Positions 45,270-61,018 of a DNA stretch of 64,000 bases are shown here, in pieces. The translations under genes and the position numbers were made by a program. The notes below the pieces were generated by a model. That model searched no databases, was not told where the DNA came from, and saw nothing but the letters and a program-made list of their open reading frames with translations. How positions within the stretch are numbered: position 1 is the stretch's first letter; every line of letters begins with the position of its first letter. The DNA comes from an uncultured bacterium. Its GTDB lineage: Bacteria > Zixibacteria > MSB-5A5 > CAIYYT01. The stretch spans positions 1,216,001-1,280,000 of the forward strand of contig CAVSCK010000004.1 in NCBI GenBank assembly GCA_963726455.1, given 5' to 3'.

Positions 45270-45827
45270 TCACTCTACGATTGGTGACGTGCCCGCTACC
45301 CGTACCTTCGTGCCTCGATCTTCAATCCACACATCCCAATTGTTGCGAACGATCTTACCTCCGAGTCGATAGCGATGCCCGGCAACACAGTCAAACGCCA
45401 GAGGAATCGGCGATGAATACACAATCCGCCGTATAGACTTTTCGCTTCTCCGGCCGGTGCACTTGATCACGATAATATGGCGGCCTTGCGCCAGATAGAC
45501 TTTGCCGACTTTCTCCGCCAAGTCAAAGTCAACCAGGGCCGAGTCCAGTTGTTCGAGGGGGTTTGAAGCTGGAGCCACAGAGTCGGCCCCTTGATTCTTC
45601 CTTTGACCTCCGGAATGAAGTTGGGAAGTGGTGATCGTGTCAATTTGGCTGGCGTATACAAACAGGATCGTATCCAAAAAGCGATTGCCGACCTTTTGGA
45701 AGATGTCCAGTTCCGCCACCGAGTTCTTTGGCATCTTGCGTCCGTCGACTAGCTTAACATCACCGGCAGATACATGGGCTATCGCAGTTAGTAGACATGT
45801 GAACAAAAAAGCTGAGACAATCCTCAT
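45270..45827 (-). CDS. Exported hypothetical protein, paralog 2
   Basis: DGRKMPKNSVAEL...AGHRY...WDVWIEDRGTK; GAGG RBS. Confidence 0.7.
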   Translation of the reverse strand: MRIVSAFLFTCLLTAIAHVSAGDVKLVDGRKMPKNSVAELDIFQKVGNRFLDTILFVYASQIDTITTSQLHSGGQRKNQGADSVAPASNPLEQLDSALVDFDLAEKVGKVYLAQGRHIIVIKCTGRRSEKSIRRIVYSSPIPLAFDCVAGHRYRLGGKIVRNNWDVWIEDRGTKVRVAGTSPIVE

Positions 45828-45838
45828 AGTGTGCTTCC

Positions 45839-46393
45839 TCATTGCAAAACCTGTGCCGTTGTCGCAACGGTATCCTTAGTATCTTTATCCTCAATCCAGA
45901 CGTTCCACTTATCGACGACGATCGCCGCTCTCAGCCAGTAGCGGTGACCCGCCAGGCATTTCAGCGATAAAGGGATACGAGATGAAATTAAGCATGCGAG
46001 TCGACCTCTACCCTCAATCATACCATAGCAATTTGCTTTCACAATGTGCTTCCCAGGAGCTAGGTAGATTTTACCCGCGATGCCGATCCAATCACAATAC
46101 GCGCCTTCCGAAACTTGCACTTCCAGAAACACCGGGATATCGGAGAGAGTATCAACTTTTACCGGTTGGCGTTCGCTTCCATGAAACAGTTGGGGAGACG
46201 AAACACCATCCACCTCTGCTACCAGCACATCCCATGTGCTGTCCTGAGCCTGCCCTCCTTTGCCGGAAAGGTCGAATTCCGCAGTCAGTTCCTTCGACAT
46301 CTTCCTCCCGTCCAGAGTCCTGACTCTGCCCGTCGGCGCGCAGCCCAGAGCCAGCAACATCGATAGCATGATCGTCACGGCGCACGATTTCAT
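45839..46393 (-). CDS. Lipoprotein, paralog 1
   Basis: Lipobox ALGC; DGRKMSKELTAEF...AGHRY...WNVWIEDKDTK. Confidence 0.7.
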   Translation of the reverse strand: MKSCAVTIMLSMLLALGCAPTGRVRTLDGRKMSKELTAEFDLSGKGGQAQDSTWDVLVAEVDGVSSPQLFHGSERQPVKVDTLSDIPVFLEVQVSEGAYCDWIGIAGKIYLAPGKHIVKANCYGMIEGRGRLACLISSRIPLSLKCLAGHRYWLRAAIVVDKWNVWIEDKDTKDTVATTAQVLQ

Positions 46394-46699
46394 CGAGGTA
46401 CTTTTCCTACTCCAGTATCTGGTAGCTGCTATGGTACACTGACGGATTACGGATGACAAACTCTTTTCTTTACTTTTTTGCCCGGAGGGAATCTTTTGCG
46501 CACTGCATAGTCCCGCATCAGCTTGAGGCAAAGAGTCCGAAATTTTCTAATGTAGCTTTCTGGGCGGTCAAATATAGGGCGTGGAGCATCAAGAATGAAC
46601 GAAAAGGCAGAAAATTCACATTTTGACCTCTACGCGCCGAAATTCTCTTGCCATTAGATATGGTTTCCGACATTATTAGACATATTAAGAGGTACTAAG

Positions 46700-47575
46700 A
46701 TGAAGATTGGTGAGATCGTCCGTAGATCGTTCATTCTTGCATGGGAACTCAAGAGTCTCTGGATCTTCGCGTTTTTCCTGACTCCCAATCTCATTGGAAT
46801 TCGATTGTATAACCCTCAGTACGATCCAGCGGGGGACTTTCCCTGGGAACAAATACTCCGCTTTATGATGATTGGCGGGATTGCTGCCGCGTTCTATATG
46901 TTTGTGACGCCGATGATTCAGGCAACGCTGATTATCATTGTCTTCCAACGGGAGCGGGGCACTCGCATGACCCTCAAGGATGGTATCAGTCGCTCCCTGG
47001 ATTACTACTGGCGATGTTTTCTGCTCAGTCTTTATTGGCTGTTCATCGCGCTCTTAATAGGAATTGCGGCGACGTTGATCCTGGTTCCGGCGTTCCTGGT
47101 CCATCTCGCTGTCGGACTACTTGTCTCGTTTGTCATGGTACCGGTCTTGCTTTTGCTGCTTCTCGCATATCTTGCCGTCACCGCCTACTCGTATCGCTTT
47201 GTCGTGATCGAAAATCAGAGCGTTCGTACCGCCATCAAAACCACCTACTCGTTCTTCAAGGAGCGTAAGGCGCAGTCGCTTATCGCGTCGGTAGCCAATT
47301 TTGCGATCGCATTCGGGATTAGCATGGTCACCGGCATCGTGGTGGTTATGGTTCAATTTCTGCTCGCGCTACCTGCGGTAGTGGCAGGAGAGTCTCTGCT
47401 GTCGGTTGGCTCTAATCTCCCATCCGTGGCGTTTTCGGTAGTAGTCTCGCTGGTGGTCATGGGATTCTGCAGTCTTTTCAATTCGGCGTTCTGGACAATA
47501 TTCATTGTGGGGTCATACAGCTGGCCGGCCGTGACAGTGGCAGACACGCCACCGTTGCCTTCATTTGAGGTCTGA
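46700..47575 (+). CDS. Multi-pass membrane protein of unknown function
   Basis: GAGG RBS; about six TM helices. Confidence 0.7.
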   Translation: MKIGEIVRRSFILAWELKSLWIFAFFLTPNLIGIRLYNPQYDPAGDFPWEQILRFMMIGGIAAAFYMFVTPMIQATLIIIVFQRERGTRMTLKDGISRSLDYYWRCFLLSLYWLFIALLIGIAATLILVPAFLVHLAVGLLVSFVMVPVLLLLLLAYLAVTAYSYRFVVIENQSVRTAIKTTYSFFKERKAQSLIASVANFAIAFGISMVTGIVVVMVQFLLALPAVVAGESLLSVGSNLPSVAFSVVVSLVVMGFCSLFNSAFWTIFIVGSYSWPAVTVADTPPLPSFEV

Positions 47576-47700
47576 ATCCAGCGTCAGCAGATTCATGTTA
47601 ATTTCGAGTGCCTCAATCTTGACAAAGTCATACTGCTATCGCTACTTTGAAGCTGTTAGATGAATCAATACAATCGAAAACGAACGGAGGCAATAGAGCC

Positions 47701-48018
47701 ATGTTGAAACCATCTTATAATCCTGACGACCCACTTGAAGTGTCGGAATTTCTGCGGGCACTAGTCACCACCTGGGCGGACAAGAACGAGGGACCATCGC
47801 GGGCCAGACGCGCGATCCAGGATATCGCGGGATCAGGCGACGACGGTATGCGGCTGCTGAGAGAATGCAGTGCTTTGATTGGCCGCTATCACGTAGGCGC
47901 CACCGATATGCGCCTATTCCCACTTAACGTGATTGCCGGACGACCGATCCCGGTTGCCGATATTTTGAGGTCAATGCAGCAGGAGCTGAACACCTACATC
48001 CGGCGTCTGATGGTCTAG
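47701..48018 (+). CDS. Hypothetical protein
   Basis: GGAGG upstream of the ATG at 47701. Confidence 0.5.
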   Translation: MLKPSYNPDDPLEVSEFLRALVTTWADKNEGPSRARRAIQDIAGSGDDGMRLLRECSALIGRYHVGATDMRLFPLNVIAGRPIPVADILRSMQQELNTYIRRLMV

Positions 48019-48148
48019 TTTGGGCCGAAATTTCTGTAGATCAGTTATCATGGCCCATCATTTTCGGAACTTGACAAGCGAACGTACGATATATACTTAT
48101 GAGAGGTGCGCGGCGGGTTTCTGTCGCGTACATCAGACAAGTATCCTT

Positions 48149-48514
48149 GGGGGTGATTTGGTTTCGACGGGGTTACCGAGGATTGACTTGCGCGCCGAGT
48201 TTGCGCCAGACTCGTTAAACGGGTGCAAAACAATTAGCTGGCAACTATGCCATTGCTGCCTAACTAGCAAAAACTAGTTAAGCCGTCGGGCGCGAGGCCC
48301 GCCATCAGGCGTCGCGTTTCCGGCGTCGACAAATGATGGATAGCTTCAACGTTTGGCTTGGCGATGAAGAAGCGAAACTACAAGCGAAGCTGGTCTAACG
48401 CCAGCCTTAGTCTTTCGGCGGTGCGTTAGACGAGAAATAAATGAAAGAACACGCGCGTAGACGGTTAGTTGTCGGTTTCTTCGGACGGGGGTTCGATTCC
48501 CCCCACCTCCACCA
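48149..48514 (+). ncRNA. ssrA: tmRNA (one-piece)
   Basis: 5' GGGGGTGATTTGGTTTCGACGGGG; 3' GGGGGTTCGATTCCCCCCACCTCCACCA with G3-U70 acceptor pair; pk1; tag frame ending GNYAIAA*; TTGACA...TATACT upstream at 48071-48097. Confidence 0.95.
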
Positions 48515-48521
48515 TTTTCAA

Positions 48522-48550
48522 GTGTCAAGGACGAGGCGGTTCTGATATTC
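48522..48550 (-). repeat. REP-like family A copy just after tmRNA
   Basis: GTGTCAAGGACGAGGCGGTTCTGA. Confidence 0.6.
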
Positions 48551-48583
48551 GTTCCTGTAACCTGAGAAAAGGACTCAGCTAGG

Positions 48584-49351
48584 ATGCAGATCAAAGCGAA
48601 CTGTGATATCTACTACGATGACATCGTACGTGTGCTTTCTGGGCCCCTAGAAGGGCGAGTAGGAGTTGTGGATGACGAAGAATCGGGGAACGCCATTGTG
48701 CACTTTGGGGGATACTTTCTTACTCCGCAATATTACTTGATCGATCCGGATAACCTGAAACACTGCAGCGTCGATGATTATCTCAAACGGGAAGCGGAGA
48801 TCGTTACAGCACTTTTCACAAATCATGATCGTTCTTGGAAACATCGGTATGAGCTTCTTGCTGAACTCGAATTGATCAGAGGGGAGCTTGCCGCGGGCCT
48901 CAATCCAACTGACATGTGGTTTGACAAGAAGACGAGACGCAAGATCACAAAGGTATTCCTTGCGCACTCTGCAAATGACAAGCCCATCGCCAGGGCAATT
49001 CGTCTTGACCTCTTGAATAGAGGTTTCGATGTGTGGATAGACGAACAGGAAATCTTCGCCGGTGAGTCAATACCAGTCAAGATATCGAGAGCGATTGCAG
49101 AGTCGCACTTCATGGTTGTTCTTCTGTCTGGCGCTTCTGTTGCGTCAAAGTGGGTGGAAAAAGAATGGGCAACGAAGATTATCCAGGAAATTCCAGCGGG
49201 CAGAGTTTCCATTATTCCTGCCCTTTTGGAGCCCTGCGCCATACCAGCCGTATTGAGAGACAAGAGGTATGCGGACTTCACGGAGAGCTACGGGGACGGC
49301 CTAAGAGAGTTGGTCAAGGGGCTAGCCAGACCGAGGGCAACAAAGAGGTGA
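48584..49351 (+). CDS. TIR-domain protein with N-terminal KOW-like motif
   Basis: DIVRVLSGPLEGRVGVV (KOW-like); VFLAHSANDK, VWIDEQEIFAGESI, SKWVEKEW (putative catalytic Glu), YADF. Confidence 0.85.
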   Translation: MQIKANCDIYYDDIVRVLSGPLEGRVGVVDDEESGNAIVHFGGYFLTPQYYLIDPDNLKHCSVDDYLKREAEIVTALFTNHDRSWKHRYELLAELELIRGELAAGLNPTDMWFDKKTRRKITKVFLAHSANDKPIARAIRLDLLNRGFDVWIDEQEIFAGESIPVKISRAIAESHFMVVLLSGASVASKWVEKEWATKIIQEIPAGRVSIIPALLEPCAIPAVLRDKRYADFTESYGDGLRELVKGLARPRATKR

Positions 49352-49408
49352 AGGAGTGGTCATAATCATGAGGAGTCCTTGCTTCTGCTGATGGAGCTAC
49401 TTTCTGGA

Positions 49409-49437
49409 GTGTCAAGACCGAGGCGGTTCTGGCCTGC
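49409..49437 (-). repeat. REP-like family A copy
   Basis: GTGTCAAGACCGAGGCGGTTCTGGCCTGC. Confidence 0.65.
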
Positions 49438-49476
49438 GCGATTGCGAGAAATTCGCTCCGTGAAGCGTTTGGCCAT

Positions 49477-50442
49477 ATGTTGAAAAGCGAAAATCGGTGG
49501 AGAGCCGTCCCGAGCGATAGTGGAACCATCTTTGAGCTTTTGAATAGGCAACTCATCGCGTTTTCGGAAGAGCATGAGGATGGCTTGCCCGAAATAGGCA
49601 CTGGGAAGAACGTCTTTGTAGGTAGCGACTACAGCGGCGAGCATCAGGAGGCCGACTACGAAGTGTATGCAATCCTAGTGGCACCCCTCGACAGTTGTAT
49701 GGAATGGGAATCGCGGCGAAGCGAAGTCAGAGAGAAATATCTTTCTGACGGTCGTAGAATGTCCTTCAAGGCCCTTCGCGATAAGAGGTGCCTCTCGGCC
49801 CTTCCGGAGTTCCTGGAAGCTGCTGATCATATTCCAGGACTCTGCGTGGCCTTTGCGGTACACAAGTCCGTGGGTTCACTTTTCGACAATCTAATATCAC
49901 CGAGATCTGAAGATCCCCTATTTCTGCCGTACCTGGGCTGGCCAAAGCATGTGCTCGAAAAGGCCGGTCGCCTCGCGCACTTCACGGGCTTTTTGCTGGG
50001 CGGGCTCTGCTCGTCAGGCCAGAACCTGCTTTGGATTACGGACGAAGATGCCGTGGCAGCTAACGTGGAACGCCTGAAGCAGTTCACCGATCTTTGTGGA
50101 TGGATCACAAGCCGCTATTTGAGTTTCGACATGGGACACATTAGGATCGGCACAACGGCTTCCGACAACGGCAGCAGATCTGTCGAGGATCTTGTTTCAG
50201 TTGCAGATATCGTTGCGGGAGCCATTTCTGAACAGCTCACCGCCCGGCGACGTTACGACTTCATCGACCCGACTAAAGTGTTCTGGCTCGCGAATCCAGA
50301 ATTCTCACATAAGACCAAGGACATAACATGGTGGTTTGCGTCTGTTCGTCAGCCGCTGAAGCGTCTTGTCTTCGTGATCGATGGAGAGGACAATTCCGTC
50401 AAAACCAAGGTGAGTTTCTTCCACTTCCACGATAGGTCGTAA
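49477..50442 (+). CDS. Hypothetical protein, possible RNase H-like (DUF3800-related) fold
   Basis: Acidic motifs VFVGSDYSG, WITDED and SVADIVAG spaced like a DUF3800-type catalytic set; fold assignment is inference. Confidence 0.55.
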   Translation: MLKSENRWRAVPSDSGTIFELLNRQLIAFSEEHEDGLPEIGTGKNVFVGSDYSGEHQEADYEVYAILVAPLDSCMEWESRRSEVREKYLSDGRRMSFKALRDKRCLSALPEFLEAADHIPGLCVAFAVHKSVGSLFDNLISPRSEDPLFLPYLGWPKHVLEKAGRLAHFTGFLLGGLCSSGQNLLWITDEDAVAANVERLKQFTDLCGWITSRYLSFDMGHIRIGTTASDNGSRSVEDLVSVADIVAGAISEQLTARRRYDFIDPTKVFWLANPEFSHKTKDITWWFASVRQPLKRLVFVIDGEDNSVKTKVSFFHFHDRS

Positions 50443-50559
50443 CGCATCATGGGTGGTGGCCCTTCGTGAAAGCAACAGGTAGGAGCGTTCTAGCTTGCCC
50501 AGTCGGCGTCTGTCTCGTGGCCGGAGATAAATGAACAGGTGAAGCGAAAGGAGCGGAGC

Positions 50560-51270
50560 ATGTTTAAATCCTTGAAACGGGCTTTTGCCCTAACAGATGG
50601 GTTAGAGGAACTGAAGAGGTTCAGTCCGATAACGTTTTTCGTAGAGAGAGTCTTCTTCTGCTTTCAGTACCTGTCGCCTGCGAATCTGCTATTCGGAACC
50701 CGCACGAGAGCCCACGAGATGGGCAAAGACGAAGAGAAATTCAGAGAAGTAACGGTAAAGAGGGGCCGCAAAATCGACGGCTACGTTCTGTGTTGGTTCG
50801 TTGTGTTGCTCCTCTGTGCTGTTGCCGCGGCGGACTCCCGAGAACCATTCAAGGCATTGATCATATTCCTGCCCGTACTCAGGATCTTCGACATTATGCA
50901 AGTTGCGATTAATATGGTAGTATTCGATCACTTGCGGACTACGCGAAAGCATTCCGTTTCTAGCGTTACCAGAACCCTTGTTATGGGGCTTTGGAACTTC
51001 GTCGAAATGGTGATCGCGTTCGGTATCCTATACTCCGCCATTATGCCGCAGATCGAAAATGCCAAGACTTGGTTCGACCCCTACTACTTCAGTGTCATAA
51101 CTCAATTGACCATCGGCTATGGTGATCTCACGCCGATCGGAGTGGCTCGAATGGTGACTGCTGTCCAAGGCATAGTAGGTGTTGTGTATGTGGTCATGAT
51201 GTTGTCAAGGTTCGTCTCTCTCATGCCCCGTATCGGCTCAGTCCAGACTAGCGAGAATCGCAAGGCATAG
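50560..51270 (+). CDS. Potassium-channel-family protein (Ion_trans_2 pore), no cytoplasmic gating domain
   Basis: YFSVITQLTIGYGDLTP selectivity filter; several TM helices. Confidence 0.85.
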   Translation: MFKSLKRAFALTDGLEELKRFSPITFFVERVFFCFQYLSPANLLFGTRTRAHEMGKDEEKFREVTVKRGRKIDGYVLCWFVVLLLCAVAAADSREPFKALIIFLPVLRIFDIMQVAINMVVFDHLRTTRKHSVSSVTRTLVMGLWNFVEMVIAFGILYSAIMPQIENAKTWFDPYYFSVITQLTIGYGDLTPIGVARMVTAVQGIVGVVYVVMMLSRFVSLMPRIGSVQTSENRKA

Positions 51271-51365
51271 GCTTGCCGTCCATGGCGGACACAAACTTGG
51301 GTGTCTGCCATTAGGCGACAGGGACCTGTGCCGCCAGCGGAAATCGAATTCAAGCTTCGACCAAA

Positions 51366-51684
51366 CGCCGAGTTTGCGCCAGACTCGTTAAACGGGTGCA
51401 AAACAATTAGCTGGCAACTATGCCATTGCTGCCTAACTAGCAAAAACTAGTTAAGCCGTCGGGCGCGAGGCCCGCCATCAGGCGTCGCGTTTCCGGCGTC
51501 GACAAATGATGGATAGCTTCAACGTTTGGCTTGGCGATGAAGAAGCGAAACTACAAGCGAAGCTGGTCTGACGCCAGCCTTAGTCTTTCGGCGGTGCGTC
51601 AGACGAGAAATAAATGAAAGAACACGCGCGTAGACGGTCAGTTGCCGGTTTCTTCGGACGGGGGTTCGATTCCCCCCACCTCCA
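51366..51684 (+). repeat. 319-nt direct copy of tmRNA lacking the first 44 nt and the terminal CCA
   Basis: Matches 48193-48511 with four substitutions found by eye. Confidence 0.95.
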
Positions 51685-51744
51685 ATAATTAAAGTGTAAA
51701 CCCTCAGGAAATCCTGACGTACACAACTATCAGTTGGTACGAAT

Positions 51745-52251
51745 ATGGATTTTGTGTCTCATGCACTGTGGGGCGGCGTAGCCCTTGGCCGATCGAGAAA
51801 AAGAGATTTCCTGCTGGCCGCCAGCATCTCAATCATGCCCGACCTTCTTACCGAAGGGCTTTTCATGCTTCTTTACTTGCTGGGAATTGGCGGAATGCCG
51901 GGATGGCAAAACGGACACCCCAATATCACCGACTACCCTCTGTTTGCCCAGACCCTCTATAACATCACGCACAGTTCAATCGTCTTTGCGGCCGTATTCG
52001 GGTTGTTGTGGGTAGTGATTGGCAGGCCCATGTGGGTTATCACGACCTGGGGTTTGCATATTCTAATCGACATACCCACGCATTCGCTGGCTCTCTTCCC
52101 CACACCATTTCTCTGGCCAATTTCCAACCTGAAATTCGACGGGATTGGTTGGGATCAACCTGTAGTTTGGGTCGTTGACATCTCTCTGTTGATAACCAGC
52201 TACGCACTATGGCTATACCCCGGACTTCGTAGGAGGATACAAGGCGGATAG
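51745..52251 (+). CDS. Membrane-bound metal-dependent hydrolase (YdjM-like)
   Basis: SHALWG, IMPDL, ITHS, LHILIDIPTH motifs. Confidence 0.75.
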   Translation: MDFVSHALWGGVALGRSRKRDFLLAASISIMPDLLTEGLFMLLYLLGIGGMPGWQNGHPNITDYPLFAQTLYNITHSSIVFAAVFGLLWVVIGRPMWVITTWGLHILIDIPTHSLALFPTPFLWPISNLKFDGIGWDQPVVWVVDISLLITSYALWLYPGLRRRIQGG

Positions 52252-52339
52252 TTCAGTGATCTCACCCGGCGGTCTCAGGGCGAAACTTGATTGCGATGCT
52301 AGTCTGACGCCAGCTTAGTCTTTCGGCGGTGCGTCAGAC
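52246..52339 (+). repeat. Internal tmRNA-derived fragment (pk3/pk4 region)
   Basis: GCTAGTCTGACGCCAGCTTAGTCTTTCGGCGGTGCGTCAGAC matches 51562-51604; weaker similarity extends upstream (GGATAG..GCGAAACT). Confidence 0.8.
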
Positions 52340-52489
52340 TTTGAGTCCACAACAACTATGTTGCCGGACTTTGCTCCGTTTTCCCATCCCTCTACAAAAT
52401 TCTCTACCAGAATCCGGGACAGCTTCGTAATTTCAGATACTGACTTTCAATAAGAAGCTCTTGACAATGACTGAGAAGAGGAGCATTCA

Positions 52490-53005
52490 ATGCAAAGAAG
52501 AGCGTGGCTAATACTAGCGTTTGTGGTAACATTCGGACTTGGTTACGCGGTCAGCCAGGGGGTATCTGCAACCTCGGACGACACGCAAAAGCTGAAACGA
52601 GTTACCGGAATCGGGGGCATCTTTTTCAAGTGTAAAGACCCGGGCAAAATCAGAGAATGGTACCATGCGCATCTCGGTCTCGAAACTGACAAATACGGGA
52701 CCAGCTTCGTGTGGTGGCAGGGCGCAGACTCAACCAAGAAAGGGTTTACTCAGTGGAGTCCGTTTAATGACTCGACGAAGTACTTCCTGCCGTCAACCAA
52801 GGAGTTCATGATTAACTATCGGGTTGCCAACTTGACCGCCCTGGCTGATCAACTCCGGAAAGAAGGAGTAACAATTCTCGATACGATCGAGTCATACGAT
52901 TACGGAAAATTCGTTCACATCATGGATATCGACGGCAACAAGATCGAGCTCTGGGAACCCAACGATGATGAATATAACAAATTCGAAGGTGGGCGCACTA
53001 AATGA
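52490..53005 (+). CDS. VOC/glyoxalase-family protein with N-terminal signal or anchor
   Basis: RVTGIGGIFFK, FMINYRV, DGNKIELWEP. Confidence 0.85.
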   Translation: MQRRAWLILAFVVTFGLGYAVSQGVSATSDDTQKLKRVTGIGGIFFKCKDPGKIREWYHAHLGLETDKYGTSFVWWQGADSTKKGFTQWSPFNDSTKYFLPSTKEFMINYRVANLTALADQLRKEGVTILDTIESYDYGKFVHIMDIDGNKIELWEPNDDEYNKFEGGRTK

Positions 53006-53772
53006 CGGAAACAGGTGACATCCCTATTCTAGAGTTCGATCCGACTCCACGGGCCGTACTCGAGCCGTCGGCGGTCGTTCCTCGGGTCGATAACGCAGAG
53101 CATTGTGTCATCTGCTTCTTTGACGATATCGTCCGGCAGGTTGCCGCGGCCACCGGGGCGAAAATAGTGTTTGAAGATAAGGGCTGCTACGGGACAAACC
53201 AATATTACCAGTTTGAGCACAACGGACGTCCGGTCGTCTTTTTCCAGCCGTTCGTCGGCGCGCCGCTGGCGGCGGCCTTTATGGAGATCGCCATCGGACT
53301 CGGATGCCGAAAATTCGTCGTTTGCGGCGGCTCCGGCGTGCTCGATAGGGATATTTCGGTCGGCGGCTTTATCGTACCGGACTCGGCTATTCGCGATGAA
53401 GGAACTTCCTATCACTACGTCGCTCCAAGTCGAACGATAGAAGTGGGTCAGAGGGCGAAAGATGCGATCATCTCGACACTGGACAGTCATCACCAGTCAT
53501 ACCGGGTAGGCAGGATCTGGACGACCGATGGCTTGTTTCGAGAAACACCGGCAAGAGTCGCCCGGAGAAAGTCGGAAGGTTGTGTGGCGGTCGACATGGA
53601 AGCGGCAGCCCTTCTCGCAGTGGCCCAATTTCGCAATGTCGAATTGGGTTACTTGCTGTTTGGGGACGACGATGTTTCGGGCGATGAGTGGGTTCAGAGA
53701 AGCAGTCTATCGAAACTGCCCGTCAAGGAAAGAGTTTTCTGGCTAAGCGTGGAATCGTGCTTGAAGCTCTGA
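53002..53772 (+). CDS. Nucleoside phosphorylase (PNP_UDP_1)
   Basis: VGAPLAA, AIRDEGTSYHY, WTTDGLFRET, VDMEAAA. Confidence 0.88.
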   Translation: MTETGDIPILEFDPTPRAVLEPSAVVPRVDNAEHCVICFFDDIVRQVAAATGAKIVFEDKGCYGTNQYYQFEHNGRPVVFFQPFVGAPLAAAFMEIAIGLGCRKFVVCGGSGVLDRDISVGGFIVPDSAIRDEGTSYHYVAPSRTIEVGQRAKDAIISTLDSHHQSYRVGRIWTTDGLFRETPARVARRKSEGCVAVDMEAAALLAVAQFRNVELGYLLFGDDDVSGDEWVQRSSLSKLPVKERVFWLSVESCLKL

Positions 53773-53832
53773 TTCACGTTCCGATATTATCTTAACGCGT
53801 TTTGACACTTCTGACTTGGTCACAACGCGAGT

Positions 53833-53860
53833 CGGGGGTTCGTCCTCCCACATCCACATT
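53833..53860 (+). repeat. Degenerate tmRNA 3'-end remnant
   Basis: CGGGGGTTCGTCCTCCCACATCCACATT versus CGGGGGTTCGATTCCCCCCACCTCCACCATT. Confidence 0.5.
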
Positions 53861-54099
53861 TGTAAGTCAATATAGTTAAATCAATTGCCAGGGCAGCGAG
53901 GGCACCGTCCTACCGTCCCCTGCTACGTCCGACCCTATATCATTCAATTGCACTGAATATCATGCGGCGAGAAGTGTCACGTCTTGGTTACAAGGAATCG
54001 TCGCCTAACTACTCCTTCTCAATCTATGTTTTGATTCACTGCGTATTGATACATTGTTACATCTGTGGCAATTGTGTTAACCAGTGGAACTGATCTGGA

Positions 54100-54300
54100 A
54101 TGAAAAAGAAATCGAAGACAGAAACCAGGGATCGGATGGTTCATATTCGGGTGAATGTGAATATACATCGCGAATTGAAACTCCTTGCCGTCAGGAATGA
54201 CACCTCGATCCAAAGAATCGTTGAGGAATTGATTAGGCACAAAGTAGAAGAGATGCAAGCTGCTCTCGAACGATCTGGTAAGACAAAGGGACGAGAATGA
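54100..54300 (+). CDS. Small ribbon-helix-helix-like DNA-binding protein
   Basis: MVHIRVNVNIHRELKLLAVRNDTSIQRIVEELI pattern; ATGA overlap with the kinase gene. Confidence 0.6.
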   Translation: MKKKSKTETRDRMVHIRVNVNIHRELKLLAVRNDTSIQRIVEELIRHKVEEMQAALERSGKTKGRE

Positions 54301-56982
54301 TATTGTCCAAAGGTCAAAGACTCGGTCCTTATGAGATCGAAGCGCCTGTTGGATCCGGTGCGATGGGCGAGGTATACCGGGCTAAGGATATCCGTCTCGA
54401 CCGAGTCGTGGCCATAAAGGTCTTGCCAGCCGCTCTGGCGCTCGACCGGGAGCTTCGTGATCGTTTCGTTCGCGAGGCCAAATTGATTTCGAGTCTGAAC
54501 CATCCGAATATCTGTACTCTTTTTGATGTAGGTCATCAGGAAGGGATCGATTTCCTGGTACTGGAATATGTGGAAGGTGAAACGATAGCGGATCGTCTAT
54601 GTAGAGGAACGCCATCACTCAAGGAAGTAATCAACATTGGAATTCAAATCGCAGACGCTCTCGAATCAGCTCATCGGCGTGGCATAGTGCACCGGGATCT
54701 AAAACCAGGCAATATTATGCTGACAAAGACCGGGGTCAAGCTCGTCGACTTCGGTCTGGCAAGATTGGTGCGGGAAGATGAGACAACGCGAGAGAGTGAT
54801 GAAGCGACTCGAAAGAATCCGTTGACTGGCAAAGGGGCTATCCTTGGAACCATCCAGTATATGGCTCCCGAACAGCTTGAGAAGCCAAGAAGTCGATCAT
54901 CGGGCGGATATCTTTGCCTGCGGCGCAGTCTTATACGAAATGGTAACGGGCAAGCGGGCCTTTCAGGGCGCCAGTCAGGCAAATCTCATTGCGAGCATAC
55001 TGAAGGAAGAGCCGCGGCCGATGAACGAACTGACGCCCTTGGCTCCGCCGGCATTGGAACGTGTAGTCAGGCAGTGTTTGTCGAAGAATCCTGACGAACG
55101 ATGGCAGAGTGCCGGTGATCTCAAGTGCGAGCTCAAATGGATACTCGAGCAGACTGGGTCTTCCTCAGGGACGAACATCAATTCATCTCCAGTTCGCTCG
55201 CGATGGCGCATGATGTGGACTGGTGGCTTGACCTTGGCACTTATCGCCGCTCTATCCGTGGCAGGCGTACTCTATTTCGGCAAAGGGAGCAAGACACTTT
55301 CACTTTCGAAGCGTTTTGTTATACCCACAGAAGACTTGAAAGCCGGCTTCGCGATTGCCCCCGTGATCTCGCCGAGTGGACGGTTCATTGTCTATCTGGC
55401 TAACAATCATCTCTGGTTGCGAGACCTTACCAAACTTGATGCCGAAATAATCGCAGAAATGTCATCGACTACCTCTTTCGAAAGTGGGGTTGCCGAGGGC
55501 TTCTTCTGGTCCCCTGATTCGCGTGCCATCGCCTTCTGTCAGAATAAGCGGATGTGGAAATATGATATCGAAACCGGGTCGAAAATACCGCTTTGCGACG
55601 TTCCCGAAACAGGCGACATCATAGCGGGCGCCTGGAACAAGGCCGGAGACCTCATCATCGCAGTTTGGAGAGGGGGGTTGTATCGAGTTTCCGATCGCGG
55701 AGGAGCACCAAATTTACTCATGGCGATAGATAGTCTCAAGTATCATGACTTTCACTCTCCCACCTTTCTTCCCGACGGCCAGACACTAGTACTCTTCGTC
55801 CACGCCTACAACCCGGAAGATGACTGCATCGCCATCCTCAAGAAAGGCGCCACGGCGCTAACAAGGTTGATGCTCGTCCCACGGGCAGGAGGCGTGACTT
55901 ACTCGCCAACCGGTCATCTCCTGTACACCTTCGTGGACGTCAATCCTTCAATTTGGGCGGTGCCGTTCTCAGCCGAAAAGTTGGAATTGACGGGCAAACC
56001 GTTCCTGGCGGTTCAGGGCGGACAGTTTCCGTCGCTGTCGGAAGACGGGGCGATGATATATTCAGTAGGAATGATAGAGCAGGAACTCCAGATGACGCGA
56101 TTGTCGCTCGACGGATCGTCAGTCACGCCTATCGGAAAGCCGATAGCCGGCTGGGCGGCGCCGGTATTCACTCCCGACGGTGAACACATCACTTTTACGG
56201 CGACTGACGACACGAGACGAAATCTCTGGCAGTATGATGTGAGACGAGGAACACTGACGCGACTGACATCTGATTCATCGGTGGACGTTCTGGCAACGTG
56301 GGTTCCATCGCGAAAGGAGTATGCGTTCAACAGGATCTTGAGTGTAGGAAAGGGATTTGTCCTGATGCTCGACCCGACGACCGGTAGGGTTACCGATACG
56401 CTGGTGGAAGGACTGGACCTGGCACTGTCTCCGGATGGGCACAATATGACATATAATACCGACGTACGGGGTAGGATAACTATTTGGCGCCTGGACCTGA
56501 ATGACCCGGCACATCCGGAGATATTGTTAAACGCCGAACAGGGTGTGGGCTTGGGGGGTGGAGTCTCGCCGGTAGCCCCGAACGGACGTTGGTTCGCTTA
56601 TGCATCATCGGAATCGGGGATACGGCAGGTCTATGTGAAACGCTTCTTGGAGCCGAGTGAAGCGATACAGGTGTCAATAGATGGAGGGAATCTTCCGTTC
56701 TGGCATCCTTCGGGAAAGTTTCTGTTCTATGTAACAGATACGGCATTGATGCAAGTCGACATTGTTTGGGACGACACACCCAAGCTAAGCCAGCCGAAGA
56801 TGCTCGTGAATACGTCAGACCATCACCTCGTGCTTACTAACCACCAACATCGGGATAATGCAGCGATATCAATCAGCCCTGACGGATCCTACTTCATCGT
56901 TGGTCGGGCCGTTGGCGAAATCAGCGGCCAGAGATTGTTCTACGTTGATCATTGGCTTTCCGAGACTACCCCAGAGCGATGA
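54297..56982 (+). CDS. Hanks-type Ser/Thr kinase with TM helix and TolB/PD40 beta-propeller (apparent frameshift near 54880)
   Basis: GSGAMGEVY, VAIK, HRDLKPGN, DFGLA, GTIQYMAPEQ; continues with DIFACGAVLYEM; SPDG/SPSG repeats. Confidence 0.88.
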
Positions 56983-57094
56983 ACTTGTCGGAAAATACGA
57001 GTCTTCTACGATCCAAGAGAAGATCCCACAGCAAGCTGTGGGCTGCCAAATTTCGCCGACCTCAAACAAGCTTCTTAGTTGAGCGTATCTGTGC

Positions 57095-57685
57095 ATGAAT
57101 AGTATGAATCCTAAAGTTGATGCATATTTGGGCCGAGCCAAGAAGTGGCAGAGAGAACTGATGAAGCTAAGAATGATCGTTCTTGGCTGTCAGCTAACCG
57201 AAGAATTAAAGTGGGGTGTTCCCTGTTACACGTTTCAGAACAGCAACATTGTTCTAATACATGTGTTCAAAGAATACTGCGCGCTCCTATTCTTCAAAGG
57301 CGCTTTGTTAAAGGACGCCAAAGGCATTCTAATCCAACAAACCCAAAATACGCAGGCGGCGCGTCAGACTCGCTTCACCAATGTTCGAGAAATTGCTGAC
57401 ATGGAACCCGTCCTGAAGGCCTACATCAATGAAGCCATTGAACTGGAAAAGGCCGGCTTGAAGGTGAAGCTTAAGAAGACTACCGATTTCGCAATTCCTG
57501 AAGAATTTCAAAATAGATTAGACGAAATCCCCGCCTTGAAAACTGCCTTTGCTGCGTTAACGCCTGGACGGCAAAGAGCATACCTTCTCTATTTTTCTGC
57601 ACCAAAGCAATCCAAAACCCGGGAATCAAGGATTGAAAAATGTGTAGAGCAGATTCTCGATGGCAAGGGATTGAATGATCAGTAA
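57095..57685 (+). CDS. YdeI/OmpD-associated (DUF1801) protein
   Basis: KWGVPCY, ALLFFKGALL, ALTPGRQRAY, KQSKTRESRI. Confidence 0.85.
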   Translation: MNSMNPKVDAYLGRAKKWQRELMKLRMIVLGCQLTEELKWGVPCYTFQNSNIVLIHVFKEYCALLFFKGALLKDAKGILIQQTQNTQAARQTRFTNVREIADMEPVLKAYINEAIELEKAGLKVKLKKTTDFAIPEEFQNRLDEIPALKTAFAALTPGRQRAYLLYFSAPKQSKTRESRIEKCVEQILDGKGLNDQ

Positions 57686-57913
57686 ATTCGACAAGAATGT
57701 GACCTGGCCAGAATCCCACAGCTAGCCGTTTGTTACCGGCTTTACACACAATCGATCGGACCATGTGTCCTCTTCTCCCGAGGCAGACCCGACAGCTTCA
57801 CCTCCCAATAGTCCTCCTCAGTGAAACTCCTTGACCTCTAAACTCGTAGTGATTTGAAGCACTGATTCACGGTTAACCATAGTAGGTTTCGCTATCTGAG
57901 AGGAGGTTCTTCA

Positions 57914-58591
57914 TTGACACACTACGATTCTTCTATTCATCAACGATGGATCACCGTCGGCATCGTCTGCGGATTCGCAACTATGATCGTTTATCCAGCG
58001 ATCATATTCATCGATCTGCCGACGCCGCTGGGAATCTTTCTGGCTGCCTCATTCGGGTTCTTGTTCGCTTTGGCGAGCATCGGTCTCAAGACGATACTTG
58101 AACTTGATCGACCGTCCGTGGGAGCCCAAATCGGCGCCCTTGCCAACATCATCGGCGGAGCTGTGGTAGCCGCTATGATGCTTATACAAGTGGCGGTCAA
58201 TTCACACATGCACACTCTGATGGATGCTACCGCAGCCGGTATCACCAAAGACACCTACCGCCAGGTCTGGTTGGCAATCGACAAAATTCAGCTCGCTCTC
58301 GATGTTACCTGGGATTACTTCGGTGGTATCGGCACGGTGCTGCTCGCCTTTGCCGCGGCGAGGCATCCCCGATTCGGTTGGTGGTTTGCCGCCCCGGGAA
58401 TTATCCTCGGAGTAGCGCTCCTCATCCTCAATTGTTGGACTTTCCCAACACCTCCGGCCGAGGGCGGACTCTTTGATCTCGGTCCGTTCGTTGCCCTGTG
58501 GTACCTGGTGATGATGATTCGATCGGTTTTGTCACTTAAATGGATCCGGTTGAGATTGCAGGAAATGGCGAGCGCTTCAGATTCGAAATAG
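57914..58591 (+). CDS. Membrane protein of unknown function
   Basis: AGGAGG RBS before a TTG start; about six TM helices. Confidence 0.7.
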   Translation: MTHYDSSIHQRWITVGIVCGFATMIVYPAIIFIDLPTPLGIFLAASFGFLFALASIGLKTILELDRPSVGAQIGALANIIGGAVVAAMMLIQVAVNSHMHTLMDATAAGITKDTYRQVWLAIDKIQLALDVTWDYFGGIGTVLLAFAAARHPRFGWWFAAPGIILGVALLILNCWTFPTPPAEGGLFDLGPFVALWYLVMMIRSVLSLKWIRLRLQEMASASDSK

Positions 58592-58668
58592 CGTGTAAGT
58601 CAAGACGCCTTGGGCTGGACGGTGCCAGTGCACGGTAGTCATCATTATCTGCTCGTGCCCAAATCCCC

Positions 58669-58812
58669 GAAAGTGATCTAGTTTCAGCGAGGTCCCGGGG
58701 ATTGACTTGCGCGCCGAGTTTGCTCCGGTTGAGAGATAAATAAACCAGCGCGCGTTTGGACAGTCAATCGGCCGTTTCTTCTTACCGGCGTTCGATTCCC
58801 CCACTTCCACCA
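58669..58812 (+). pseudogene. Internally deleted, diverged tmRNA copy (tRNA-like domain and helix 2 only)
   Basis: 5' GAAAGTGATCTAGTTTC...GGATTGACTTGCGCGCCGAGTTTGC joined to ...GCGCGCG..AGTCAATC..GTTCGATTCCCCCACTTCCACCA. Confidence 0.75.
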
Positions 58813-58821
58813 TTAACAAAG

Positions 58822-58850
58822 AGGTCAAAACCGAGACGGTCTTGACCTAT
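58822..58850 (-). repeat. REP-like family A copy just after the mini-tmRNA
   Basis: AGGTCAAAACCGAGACGGTCTTGACCTAT palindrome. Confidence 0.65.
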
Positions 58851-58890
58851 ACGACGCTAATTTACTACCCAATCTTCGCACGCTATCCGC

Positions 58891-59688
58891 CTAAAGATTA
58901 AATCCGAGAGTAAAAGCAAAGGTGTTTACTATAGAAAAATTATATTCGGCTGCCAGGTTGAGTTTCCAAATAGAATAGGCGACTCCGGCATAACCCTGCG
59001 TAACTGAAAGGTTCTCTCTATTCAGATTCACTTTGGAGGTTGTTTCTGTCCCGATAACCAGACTCTCTCTAAAACCAACATAGGGAGTCAGCAAAGTAAT
59101 CTTCTTACTTGCCATCACTTCAATGCTGTAGATGTTTAGATTAAAGTCGGGAACCCCGGTAAGCAATGTGGCACTCGCCCTTACGGCTGCCGCAGGAGAT
59201 TTCCCGGATTCTTGTAAGAACGAATATTTAATTTCTGCACCCACTACACCGTAGTTGGCTTCCGGTGCTGTGGTCCAATAACCGCCAATATCCATTCTAT
59301 CAGAAACTCCCATGCCAGCTCGAATTGTCGGAGTTGATACACGGTCGCCTAAAGGGCAGTCTGCATCAGGATGCGTGAAAGTATTGATCCAGGCAAGATC
59401 GTGCTGATCAACTGGAGTGAATGCATCACCGATCGCAATTTGGAAATTCATCTTGCCAAGAGTCTTTGCAGATGCCAGTGATTTGAAGGACATAAGCGCG
59501 CCGGTTTGTTCAGTGAATTTGTGCCATTGGGCCTGCGTTAGTGAAGGATCGATGACCATTGAACAGGACTTGACACTTGGATCGATATGCCAATAGACAT
59601 TGCTGCCGTCGCTCTGTGCGTGCGCCACAGATACGAGCGCGAATAGAACCAAAGAGGTCACTGCTACCATTAATGGTCTGCTTCTCAT
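58891..59688 (-). CDS. Putative outer-membrane beta-barrel protein
   Basis: Signal peptide ending AHA; beta-strand periodicity; C-terminal TLGFNL; visibly lower GC. Confidence 0.65.
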   Translation of the reverse strand: MRSRPLMVAVTSLVLFALVSVAHAQSDGSNVYWHIDPSVKSCSMVIDPSLTQAQWHKFTEQTGALMSFKSLASAKTLGKMNFQIAIGDAFTPVDQHDLAWINTFTHPDADCPLGDRVSTPTIRAGMGVSDRMDIGGYWTTAPEANYGVVGAEIKYSFLQESGKSPAAAVRASATLLTGVPDFNLNIYSIEVMASKKITLLTPYVGFRESLVIGTETTSKVNLNRENLSVTQGYAGVAYSIWKLNLAAEYNFSIVNTFAFTLGFNL

Positions 59689-59848
59689 GATGTTCTCCCC
59701 TGCAAATTGATATCCTGGAGATCAATTTGACTTGTCTTGATGTTTTGTTTTTGTGATTTCCACTTTCCTGTACGCCGTTGCGGCCAATACATGATTGCAG
59801 CAGTTTTGATTCAGTTGGTGTACCTCATGTTTCATCCTATCTTGGTTT

Positions 59849-60427
59849 CTAACCATTTGCATCGTTCTTTTGTCTTGCCAGCGTCGCACCGATAACATCG
59901 GTGCCAACATCCATGAGAGTCTTGATGATATAATCCTGATTGCAGTCCTTGATCAGGCCGACGCAGATCAGCGAGGCCAGGCCATGGGTGAATGTCCACA
60001 TTTTCCTCAGGAGCACGCGCCGCTCACTGTCCGACAGCGACGTGAATCTGCTATCCTTAATGATCTCGGATTCCAGTTTGTTGAGGAATTCATGGACGAC
60101 ATCGCCATAGCTGTCCCCTTCCAACATCAGCGCCCTATATAGCCGGCTGTGCTCACAGGCGAACATCGCGATGCCGGTTCCCATGTTCAGAAACACCCGA
60201 TCGGTGTAAGGTCGAGAGGCGTATTCCAACAATGCTCTCTGCGTTTCCCGGATCACACACAAAGCCAGTTCGTCCATTGCCGCAAAGTGATTGTAGACGG
60301 GCGCCGTTGAGGAACCCAGTCTGACAGCTACGTTTCGAGCAGTCAATGTATTCAGACCGTTTTCCTCAACCACACTCACGGCCGCCTTTATCACTTCATC
60401 CCTCGCATACTTAATCTTGGGTGGCAT
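59849..60427 (-). CDS. TetR/AcrR-family regulator (WHG-type C-terminus)
   Basis: LTARNVAVRLGSSTAPVYNHF HTH; WTFTHGLASL. Confidence 0.9.
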   Translation of the reverse strand: MPPKIKYARDEVIKAAVSVVEENGLNTLTARNVAVRLGSSTAPVYNHFAAMDELALCVIRETQRALLEYASRPYTDRVFLNMGTGIAMFACEHSRLYRALMLEGDSYGDVVHEFLNKLESEIIKDSRFTSLSDSERRVLLRKMWTFTHGLASLICVGLIKDCNQDYIIKTLMDVGTDVIGATLARQKNDANG

Positions 60428-60456
60428 ATCTCACCAATCCAATGCTAAAGTTACAT

Positions 60457-60507
60457 AACACATGTTAGCTTACGTCTGTTATATAACAGATGTTGCATTA
60501 TTGTCAA
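60457..60507 (-). promoter_or_regulatory. TetR promoter with palindromic operator candidates
   Basis: TAACACATGTTA, CTGTTATATAACAG and TAACAGATGTTG palindromes overlapping a minus-strand TTGACA..TATATA promoter. Confidence 0.55.
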
Positions 60508-61018
60508 GAAGTCTTTGATTAGACTATTGCAAGGGAAATCGCCTCTCGGGAGTATCACGAACATGTTGAACAACATGAACATAGGTTGAATCAGGCCCCG
60601 CGGCAACTGGAGACCAACCCCCAAACGATCATGAAATCTATTTGCCGACAGTCACGTCGAGATTCGCCAGTCTTCTGCCCCTGGACTGCCGACACCGGTG
60701 GCTCTCTGGTATATAGGTCGTTGTCATTGGTGGTGGAGAGACTGCTGTTATGTATACTCAACAGACGAGGTCCTCAACCCGTCGTCTCATTAGCAACGGA
60801 CATGGCCTTCGATACCGTTTTCTTGAAACCGGATAATGGTAACCGCCGTAGATAGACCTTATATTCTACCTGAGGTCTCATTAACACTCGGGTAACTTGG
60901 GGCGATTACTTCCCTGAGAAGGTCTTTGACACAGAGCAAAAGAATGTGCCGGTACGCAATTCAGGAATCGGAACGGACGGATTAACACGCGCGATCTGGA
61001 CAGCAGCAAGGAGATTCA

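Follow-up and report, generated by a model that had tools for sequence, protein, structure and literature searches.

How do blocks of accessory genes accumulate behind a gene for transfer-messenger RNA (tmRNA), ssrA, when no recombinase gene lies nearby? Tandem islands at ssrA are textbook knowledge and are normally ascribed to integrases. The window analyzed here is a stretch of 64,000 nt from an uncultured bacterium (genome G000, contig C4, positions 1216001-1280000), in which an intact ssrA gene is followed by an array of gene blocks separated by pieces of tmRNA. The genome assembly comprises 3.64 Mb in 5 contigs, and the array sits deep within a contig of 1.9 Mb. For comparison we used the order to which this bacterium belongs, that is, 21 genomes of one family: G000 and 20 relatives, of which G001, G002 and G003 are of the same genus. 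Positions in tmRNA are given as nt 1-366 of the gene at 48149-48514.

The array is an additive genomic island anchored at ssrA and made of tandem islets without integrase. Since the ssrA islands of Dehalococcoides and the cis-mobilizable elements (CIMEs) are precedents, this layout is of a known kind. With moderate confidence, we read it as the product of successive single-crossover insertions, one of them a classical event at an attachment (att) site and those with long fragments proceeding via tmRNA homology.

Displaced copies of tmRNA behind the working gene

Five tmRNA-derived repeats, all on the + strand, had been predicted in this region. ARAGORN, Rfam (RF00023) and BLAST confirmed them, the fourth by way of a comparison with relatives, and each was found at a boundary between gene blocks (Table 1). 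In the minimum free energy (MFE) fold of the working gene, both the acceptor stem and helix 2 are present. Copy 2 lacks the 5'-terminal 44 nt, and with them the 5' strand of the acceptor stem, as well as the encoded CCA, and it was not called by ARAGORN. The third repeat had been described as an internal fragment of 94 nt; its core stood, whereas the leftward extension to 52246 was weak, with an identity of 58% over nt 190-223 and of 75% over all 94 nt in a global alignment.

Compared with ssrA alone, positions 53833-53860 (28 nt, within fragment 4) were not significant: BLAST gave no match at an E value of ≤10 in the window, and the alignment contained 24 matches in 31 columns, with 2 columns of gap. 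Positions 53821-53856 matched an att-like repeat of G003 at 89% of 38 nt (E = 1.9e-8, in a small database). As this match takes in the 12-nt left arm, which is not tmRNA, we regard fragment 4 as real. Fragment 5 was resolved by BLAST into 58673-58726 (nt 5-59, 84%, E = 7e-10) and 58731-58814 (nt 284-366, 75%, E = 7e-10), and global alignment of the two halves gave identities of 76% and 73%. The G3-U pair of its acceptor stem has been lost.

Table 1. Coordinates of ssrA, its displaced copies, the gene blocks and the hairpins between them (positions of the window)
Feature	Position	Strand	Description and evidence
ssrA	48149-48514	+	Intact; tag GNYAIAA, encoded CCA; ARAGORN; Rfam RF00023, 195.6 bits, model positions 1-374
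Hairpin, dispersed palindromic family	48524-48546	+	Directly 3' of ssrA; motif scan and fold
Block 1 (newest)	48584-51270	+	TIR protein, 48584-49351; 321-aa protein, 49477-50442; K+ channel-like protein, 50539-51270
Family hairpin	49411-49433		In block 1, between the genes of the TIR protein and the 321-aa protein
Copy 2	51366-51684	+	tmRNA nt 45-363; BLAST 315/319 (98.7%), E 2.6e-161; Rfam 103.9 bits
Block 2	51745-52251	+	168-aa protein, possible YdjM-like metal-dependent hydrolase
Fragment 3	52246-52339	+	Internal, tmRNA nt ~190-283; robust core 52280-52339 = nt 224-283, BLAST 85%, E 5e-12
Block 3	52490-53772	+	VOC/glyoxalase-fold protein, 52490-53005; PNP_UDP_1 phosphorylase/nucleosidase-like protein, 53002-53772; Pfam
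Fragment 4	53821-53860	+	Read as decayed classical attR; 12-nt element arm and tmRNA core nt 338-363 with 2 mismatches and a 2-nt gap
Block 4	54100-58591	+	Ribbon-helix-helix (RHH)-like open reading frame (weak), 54100-54300; Ser/Thr kinase-PD40 protein, 54297-56982; YdeI/DUF1801 protein, 57095-57685; 225-aa protein, 57914-58591
Fragment 5	58669-58814	+	Whole-gene remnant, tmRNA nt 1-63 joined to nt 284-366; nt 64-283 deleted
Family hairpin	58822-58848	.	After fragment 5; could also serve the convergent gene at 58891-59688

Decay of the repeats grows with distance from ssrA: copy 2 is 98.7% identical to the gene, whereas the distal pieces are truncated or internally deleted and show 73-85% identity. 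This is in good agreement with two claims of the original prediction, namely, that the distal repeats are more diverged and that the blocks were acquired sequentially, with the newest one beside the working gene.

The last tmRNA position in fragment 3 is nt 283, and the 3' part of fragment 5 takes up at the next one, nt 284 (52339/52340 and 58730/58731). The boundaries of both fragments adjoin AGAC repeats, AGAC closing nt 63 as well as nt 283 of ssrA. From this abutment, it looks as if one old tmRNA copy had been split or rearranged; no simple model fits. A likeness of 52340-52400 to nt 64-130, by which fragment 3 would have been reciprocal to the fragment 5 deletion, came down to one 8-mer seen by eye and was discarded.

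BLAST detected no further tmRNA fragment elsewhere in the 3.64-Mb genome at E < 0.05, and Rfam, run in E-value mode on positions 47000-64000, gave no extra piece of tmRNA or tRNA. Two Rfam matches to permuted tmRNA (26 and 17 bits) were rejected as being merely T-arm and acceptor parts. We likewise rejected a sixth att remnant at 57854-57871, since 17 of its 18 nt are common with the left arm of fragment 4 (53761-53778) but no tmRNA core follows. This repeat falls between the YdeI gene and the last open reading frame (ORF) of block 4.

Recombinase genes of the genome

The absence of a recombinase near the array, as originally noted, held at the level of the genome. G000 encodes four tyrosine recombinases (C2:120464, C4:226244, C4:735336 and C4:1043204) and two large serine recombinases (C3:222008 and C4:1052636). 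A search with PF00589, PF00239 and PF07508 gave no match within about 210 kb of ssrA, the matches being at least that far away or on other contigs, and Pfam found no recombinase among 20 ORFs of the window and 10 ORFs of the next 16 kb. Decayed integrase genes were sought by tblastn with the three ssrA-linked integrases of relatives described below, and no remnant was found in the 36 kb of C4:1260001-1296000 (best E value, 0.18). The best G000 matches to this integrase clade, Xer-like genes and one gene of contig C2, are 26-28% identical. By sequence comparison, the G000 genome has no orthologue of the clade.

Copy 2 and the tmRNA alleles of the genus

Copy 2 differs from the working gene at four positions, nt 249, 279, 318 and 324, and is identical to it from nt 45 to 248. 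Positions 249 and 279 pair with one another, and their change from A-U to G-C is compensatory. The change at nt 318 turns a G-U pair with G37 into a G-C pair, and nt 324 pairs with nt 31 in the MFE fold. By a rough estimate, a compensatory pair would be expected among four random changes in <1% of cases. Because all differences lie in paired positions and one pair is compensatory, we conclude that copy 2 comes from another working allele and is not a decaying local duplicate. The G249/C279 state is common to copy 2 and fragment 3, and fragment 5 has C at nt 318, as copy 2 does, along with a G at nt 31, the partner needed by C324 of copy 2.

We then inspected the flanks of the displaced copies. 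The sequence 5' of nt 45 in copy 2 is unrelated to tmRNA and contains no element arm, and no recognizable arm was found beside the tmRNA part of fragment 3 or of fragment 5. On the 3' side of copy 2, a flank of 22 nt matches the flank 3' of the G001 ssrA gene, and this is the sole evidence of flank homology that stands. That a hairpin follows ssrA, copy 2 and fragment 5 was also considered as proof of homologous flanks, but this argument is weakened by the dispersed nature of the hairpin family, which has five loci in the window (3055-3077, 3278-3300, 48524-48546, 49411-49433 and 58824-58846) compared to 0.02 expected. G001 and G003 have hairpins of like kind behind ssrA or behind att repeats. 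The family may represent the common terminator of the lineage or a repetitive extragenic palindromic (REP)-like element, and the hairpin directly behind ssrA is the probable terminator of the gene. A scan for promoter and terminator consensus sequences remained at chance level. The encoded CCA is absent from copy 2 and from the genes of G001 and G002 and present in the working gene of G000 and in G003.

An EcoRI site and a HindIII site abut at 51346-51357, 9 nt before copy 2. The genome of 3.64 Mb contains this 12-mer a single time, with about 0.2 occurrences expected. The 17 nt around it could form a 5-bp stem with a T-loop-like loop of 7 nt, and Rfam reported no tRNA there. The abutment is probably due to chance.

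The working gene itself is unusually similar to the ssrA genes of its genus. Between G000 and G003, identity is 97.3% for tmRNA, 89.3% for RNase P RNA and 97.1% for 16S rRNA (1200 nt). The values for G002 are 96.2% and 89.3% (16S rRNA was not found in this genome), and that for the tmRNA of G001 is 96.5% (neither RNase P RNA nor 16S rRNA was found in this genome). Between G000 and G007, which belongs to another genus, tmRNA is 76.1% and RNase P RNA 77.2% identical. As both RNAs diverge alike between genera, the gap between them within the genus is an anomaly. RNase P RNA and 16S rRNA were the only structural RNAs used as comparators; 6S RNA was found in none of the four genomes searched and 16S rRNA in two of the four. 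At the nucleotide level, G000 and each of the other genomes of its genus are 73-76% identical in the conserved gene region next to the locus (40.5-45.0 kb).

The differences from the tmRNA genes of G001, G002 and G003 are clustered, affecting nt 10, 31, 37, 39 and 40 and the helix partners 316 and 327. Divergence from these genes amounts to 11-14% in nt 1-44 and to 1.3-1.6% in nt 45-363, i.e., a ratio of 7-9, compared to a median of 0.6 and a maximum of 2.4 for 120 other pairs of the family (Fisher P = 0.0007-0.003). The break in divergence coincides with the start of copy 2. From these alignments, the tmRNA sequence of G000 reads as imported from a lineage resembling G001, G002 and G003.

The att system and the variable locus of the family

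BLAST with the G000 ssrA gene gave matches in 34 of 41 sampled genomes, G000 included. Within the family, the context of ssrA was examined in 16 of the 20 relatives, each being searched with its own ssrA gene; outside this census were G006 and G018, which gave no ssrA match, and G009 and G013, in which ssrA lies at a contig end. Short co-oriented repeats of 20-29 nt, derived from nt 334-363, are present in six of the 16 (G003, G004, G014, G016, G017 and G020), with one to five repeats each. Seven others (G001, G007, G008, G010, G011, G015 and G019) have no such repeat in the stretch fetched. Two genera have the left arm of the short repeats in conserved form, with GTCACAAT occurring in it as two direct repeats; fragment 4 can be aligned to both this arm and the core.

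A tyrosine integrase gene was found 84 nt to 1.9 kb 3' of ssrA in three of the 16 relatives (G007, G008 and G014), and the three integrases, which are 55-75% identical, form one clade. The att-bounded islets are mostly without an integrase: only the ssrA-proximal island of G014 has one, and the ssrA contigs of G003, G004, G016, G017 and G020 contain none. As judged from these comparisons, the family has a classical system of tyrosine integrases and att sites that targets tmRNA, and fragment 4 is a decayed site of that system. Because fragment 4 is such a site, integrases would have taken part in building the array. The original proposal that tmRNA-bearing DNA of relatives recombines in at ssrA therefore needs to be qualified. 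It is supported by the paired and compensatory differences of copy 2 and by a tmRNA identity of 96-97%, compared to 89% for RNase P RNA, and it does not extend to this one scar of the classical att type.

Longer duplicates are also present in the family. In G005 (contig C151, 1141-3470 of the stretch fetched), ssrA is followed by 1.85 kb with a single ORF of 549 aa and then by a second tmRNA copy, which starts at nt -2 and is 100% identical over 119 nt, up to the contig end. The C terminus of the 549-aa ORF resembles a PD-(D/E)xK nuclease by eye. In G010, the segment C6:138208-138496 duplicates the region upstream of ssrA together with tmRNA nt 1-55 (87-94% identity), 122 kb downstream of the gene and on the same strand; this duplicate ends at nt ~47-55, near the nt 45 start of copy 2. 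The contig of G012 breaks at a 55-nt tmRNA overlap. A 3-kb contig of G002 (C421) holds a diverged tmRNA-like copy, with identities to its own ssrA of 70% for nt 1-116 and 87% for nt 303-363, and a 25-nt att-type repeat 2.2 kb after it (13-37, 2248-2605). It may represent an old copy that was displaced, as with fragment 5, or else contaminating DNA in the bin.

The locus behind ssrA is hypervariable. Upstream, synteny with the three genomes of the genus extends up to about 44.5-45.0 kb of the window, and the DUF7544 gene just 5' of ssrA also precedes ssrA in two other genera. When the downstream content was compared, as the original prediction had proposed, the DNA 3' of ssrA was found to differ in each of the three same-genus genomes, so that the region is not invariant; synteny with G003 resumes at about C4:1292830, ~28 kb 3' of ssrA. 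In the bin of one relative, two haplotypes that are 98.7% identical over the 6 kb upstream of ssrA diverge exactly behind the gene. The 3 kb between the paralogue gene described next and the promoter region of ssrA gave no DNA match in the fetched ssrA contigs of G001, G002 and G003, and thus the upstream side of ssrA is variable too. At 44494-46531, on the - strand, three tandem paralogous ORFs (25-35% mutual identity) correspond to one gene in G003.

Cargo of the blocks

We took as genes 11 ORFs of at least 60 aa between 48584 and 58591, all of them co-oriented with ssrA. The blocks span 0.6-4.8 kb and contain one to four genes each. Most of the gene functions proposed earlier were recovered by profile searches, i.e., TIR_2, Ion_trans_2, VOC, PNP_UDP_1, kinase-PD40 and YdeI/DUF1801. 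The TIR protein of block 1 matched Pfam TIR_2 (E = 4.6e-26), and its TIR domain matched defense models of PADLOC, e.g., PDC-S66 (1.6e-15); the channel-like protein matched Ion_trans_2 (E = 8.4e-15). For the PNP_UDP_1 protein of block 3, an AMP-nucleosidase-like model of NCBIfam scored 2.3e-18, below cut-off, and the RHH-like ORF of block 4 remained weak (E = 0.0014, below cut-off).

Two assignments fared less well. The 321-aa protein of block 1 had been called RNase H-like, which was not verified: it gave no match in Pfam, NCBIfam or PADLOC, its Atlas neighbors were labeled only "hypothetical", and no relative was found in the 20 other genomes of the order or by a pattern scan of genome_contigs. 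The hydrolase of block 2 is a language-model lead: an Atlas feature match (0.98) places the protein with clusters of which 11-22% of the members carry PF04307, and Pfam, NCBIfam and PADLOC gave no match.

In block 4, the kinase with its PD40 beta-propeller is split by a frameshift into ORFs 54297-55094 and 54844-56982, as seen in a three-frame translation. A second split gene near the array, encoding an AcrB-family pump (C4:1284060-1287147), consists of two overlapping ORFs. Both could be real pseudogenes or reflect indel errors in the assembly consensus.

The cargo genes are single copy in the genome, except for the kinase, and the blocks are unrelated to one another. Their GC content is 50-52%, compared to 53-54% for the contigs of the genome. 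A DNA search of 48515-58668 in the 20 relatives recovered only tmRNA pieces, kinase paralogues and homologues of the VOC and PNP genes, and none of the block content was found at the DNA level in G001, G002 or G003. Among the genomes searched, only G000 thus has blocks 1 and 2 and most of block 4. Homologues of block 3 are present elsewhere in 11 genomes of the sister genus, with 68-75% nucleotide identity. The 20-nt junction between block 1 and tmRNA nt 45 had a single match in metagenome contigs, an unrelated coding sequence that resembles the genome in no other part and that we attribute to chance.

How the array may have been built

In the reading that we favor, small blocks without integrase would have been inserted one by one at ssrA, each insertion leaving a tmRNA scar and pushing the older blocks away. 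We assign the scar at 53821-53860 to the tyrosine integrases of the family and their att site at tmRNA nt ~334-363. The three long scars (nt 45-363, nt ~190-283 and nt 1-63 plus 284-366) are of another origin in this reading, since pieces of such extent would not be duplicated by a crossover in the 3' core. They would stem from Campbell-type insertions, in which circular DNA enters by a single crossover, the circle carrying a long promoterless tmRNA segment, a terminator hairpin and cargo genes. In the newest event, a circle with tmRNA nt 45-363, CCA, the hairpin and block 1 would have recombined with the resident gene, its tmRNA segment coming from a different working allele of a related organism. 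Such events would also spread tmRNA sequence from one species of the genus to another. What we infer here is that a circle was the intermediate, which machinery recombined it, and how many events there were and in which direction they went; the arrangement of ssrA, block 1 and copy 2 as such is the one expected from a single crossover, be it through RecA or an integrase. Since G000 has no integrase of the ssrA-linked clade, host homologous recombination appears most likely. Also in favor of this route are the near-identity over 319 nt, the absence of an element arm and the signs that tmRNA alleles have moved within the genus. The islet of G005, with its single ORF between ssrA and a long tmRNA copy starting at nt -2, provides a second case.

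Several observations weigh against this reading. If the resident allele was the one resembling that of the relatives, the crossover must have taken place in the last 39 of the 319 nt, which has a probability of about 12% under uniform homologous recombination and is expected for an integrase acting on the 3' core. A second site-specific att site could lie at nt 45, where copy 2 begins sharply; in G010, a duplicate ends nearby, at nt ~47-55. The helix-2 partners 316 and 327 carry the states of G000 itself in both copies, and therefore a burst of change specific to helix 2 could explain the cluster of differences at the 5' end. In addition, the anomaly in tmRNA similarity rests on two comparator RNAs, the contiguity of the 319-nt repeat pair is known from the assembly alone, and the precise abutment of fragments 3 and 5 at nt 283/284 lacks an explanation. 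Block 3 may be old native DNA of the family, as its homologues in the sister genus suggest, whose identity is in the ordinary range of orthologues, and not foreign cargo. Finally, block 1 was found nowhere else, be it in the 20 other genomes of the order, in genome_contigs or at metagenome junctions, so that the mobility of a cassette is deduced from a single instance.

It is possible, although we do not think it likely, that all events were site specific, the work of tyrosine integrases whose genes were later deleted or which acted in trans, encoded by elements now lost. The long pieces would then have required either a very long tmRNA identity in attP or a crossover near nt 45-55 that replaced everything 3' of it. 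The ssrA-linked integrase clade and the conserved att arms do exist in the family, the att-bounded islets of relatives are usually without an integrase, and the excerpted account of Dehalococcoides likewise reports 15 ssrA islands without an integration module (PMC3146451). Copy 2 fits in that its identity stops at nt 363, the same end as that of the short att repeats, and in that all four of its differences lie 5' of nt 325, as a 3'-core crossover predicts; the breakpoints at nt 45 in G000 and at nt ~47-55 in G010 suggest a recurrent site. However, neither copy 2 nor fragments 3 and 5 have a recognizable element arm, and G000 has no orthologue of the clade and no remnant of it in 36 kb. Every att-type repeat in the census is 20-29 nt long, the G010 duplicate and the second copy of G005 being of another type, and the 5' duplicate of G010 lies downstream of ssrA, whereas simple 5'-side integration leaves it upstream.

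A bolder form of the single-crossover reading, which we consider doubtful, is that cargo in this family travels on integrase-free "tmRNA-homology cassettes", circles that insert by one homologous crossover. Such a cassette would comprise a long tmRNA segment without promoter, beginning at nt 1 or nt 45 and running through to the 3' terminus, together with a terminator hairpin and one to a few genes. Its insertion would overwrite the body of the working gene with the incoming allele, and the old body, displaced downstream, would decay. If true, this would account for four findings together: scars that are long and include 5' parts, the lack of integrases, the G005 islet with its 549-aa ORF, and a tmRNA whose similarity within the genus equals that of 16S rRNA although RNase P RNA has diverged four times as much. 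Besides being an att site, the tmRNA gene would serve as a common handle for recombination.

An assembly artifact, be it the fusion of two strain haplotypes with unlike DNA behind ssrA or a second copy produced by a chimeric read, is very unlikely. The structure of the array was read from the assembly alone, haplotypes that diverge exactly behind ssrA occur in the bin of a relative, contigs of G005 and G012 break at the tmRNA repeat, and the two frameshifted genes near the array may hint at consensus errors. A misjoin would nevertheless fall inside the homology and would not create the junction between block 1 and tmRNA nt 45; the array lies deep in a 1.9-Mb contig of a 5-contig assembly, and the three older fragments are too diverged to be haplotype copies.

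We give equally little credit to local duplication and rearrangement of the ssrA region without transfer, through slippage, unequal crossing-over and decay. The tandem paralogues at 44494-46531 show that local duplication happens here, and the abutment at nt 283/284 hints at rearrangement within the array. Against such an origin, the blocks are mutually unrelated and, save for the kinase, single copy, and their content is absent from the 20 relatives at the DNA level, apart from block 3 and the kinase paralogues, with nothing found in G001, G002 or G003. Moreover, the compensatory pair indicates that copy 2 evolved as a working allele elsewhere.

The array had also been called integron-like, but a platform in which a fixed ssrA site captures promoterless single-gene cassettes through conserved cassette-borne sites is hardly credible, since, even though all 11 ORFs at 48584-58591 are co-oriented with ssrA, the blocks are small and the islet of G005 has a single ORF, there is no integrase, the repeat scan found, besides tmRNA pieces of unequal extent and the one dispersed hairpin family, no cassette-borne site common to all boundaries, the blocks hold one to four genes, the longer ORFs of the G003 islets run opposite to ssrA, and each defining feature tested (IntI, attI with promoter, one attC per single-ORF cassette) fails.

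Implications

At least one uncultured lineage copies long pieces of an essential RNA gene along with its cargo, and the tmRNA gene itself appears to have been exchanged between species. Standard island finders drop candidates that have no integrase or that have internal or 5' fragments, according to the excerpted description of one of them (PMC4383910), and such layouts can be real. If homologous recombination via tmRNA took place, it would offer a simple, integrase-free route to defense and accessory islands and would call for caution in the use of tmRNA as a phylogenetic marker. If the events were integrase mediated after all, the locus would be an ordinary island graveyard with one unusually long block of identity.

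Comparison with known systems

The closest precedent is provided by Dehalococcoides, in which tandem islands with strain-specific content lie behind a single ssrA gene and are bounded by direct repeats of its 3' end (McMurdie et al. 2011, PMC3146451). In the parts of that paper available, 15 islands, about half, are without an integration module and are read as cis-mobilizable elements added by accretion. The repeats described there are uniform and 20 bp long, a serine recombinase is present in 16 islands, and the islands are many kilobases in length. Here, by contrast, no block contains a recombinase, the ssrA-linked integrase of the family is of the tyrosine type, the blocks are of the small size given above, and three of the four scars are long or include 5' or internal parts of tmRNA. 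Tandem ssrA islands, many of them without integrase, had been described before (PMC3146451).

CIMEs (Pavlovic et al. 2004, in the summary given by PMC3146451) are likewise flanked by att sites, lack integrase and transfer genes and are found in tandem at one att site. Two features of CIMEs and accretion were found here as well, namely, direct repeats at one att site (the five co-oriented repeats at block boundaries) and integrase-bearing kin at the same att site (three of the 16 family genomes, with shared att arms). According to the same summary, however, CIMEs keep functional attL and attR sites of a known integrative and conjugative element (ICE), whereas the array has a single decayed site of that type: fragment 4 has mostly lost its arm, and copy 2 has a perfect core without an element arm. 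Unlike a CIME, the newest islet is flanked by tmRNA homology and not by element arms.

The additive flexible islands of Methylophilaceae (PMC10872708) and the tycheposon arrays of Prochlorococcus (bioRxiv 10.1101/2020.12.28.424599) are similarly hypervariable regions by a tRNA or tmRNA gene, in which partial repeats of that gene (tDNA) recur, newer elements push older ones inward and degenerate remnants are present. The array shares with these islands a constant tDNA position, a conserved upstream flank and a downstream content that differs among the relatives of the genus. As far as the excerpts of these two sources go, the repeats are 3' fragments of ~20-40 nt, the islands contain integrase elements or fragments thereof, and long 5'-containing copies are not mentioned.

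The tDNA islands identified by Islander also consist of an intact tDNA and a displaced co-oriented 3' fragment downstream (PMC4383910), and such 3' pieces are present here in copy 2, in the core of fragment 4 and in the 3' part of fragment 5. Copy 2 and fragment 4 are terminal pieces in the sense of Islander, whereas fragment 3, being internal, and fragment 5, with nt 1-63 downstream of the gene, are not. The filters of the program, as stated in the excerpted text, pass only candidates that have an integrase ORF and measure at least 2 kb, and they reject internal as well as downstream 5' fragments (Hudson et al. 2015, PMC4383910). No interval of the array contains an integrase, and thus none could be called under these filters.

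Mobile integrons, too, present small co-oriented blocks in order, with the newest beside a fixed anchor, but the array has neither IntI nor attI or attC sites, no promoter-cassette logic was shown, and its blocks can hold several genes.

In the excerpted literature that we searched, we met no description of long or 5'-containing tmRNA duplicates as scars of islands, although Williams 2003 and 2002 may already cover long identity blocks. Compared to the known layouts, what is unusual here is the combination of long, internal and 5' tmRNA scars with the absence of recombinases and with the sign that tmRNA alleles have been exchanged.

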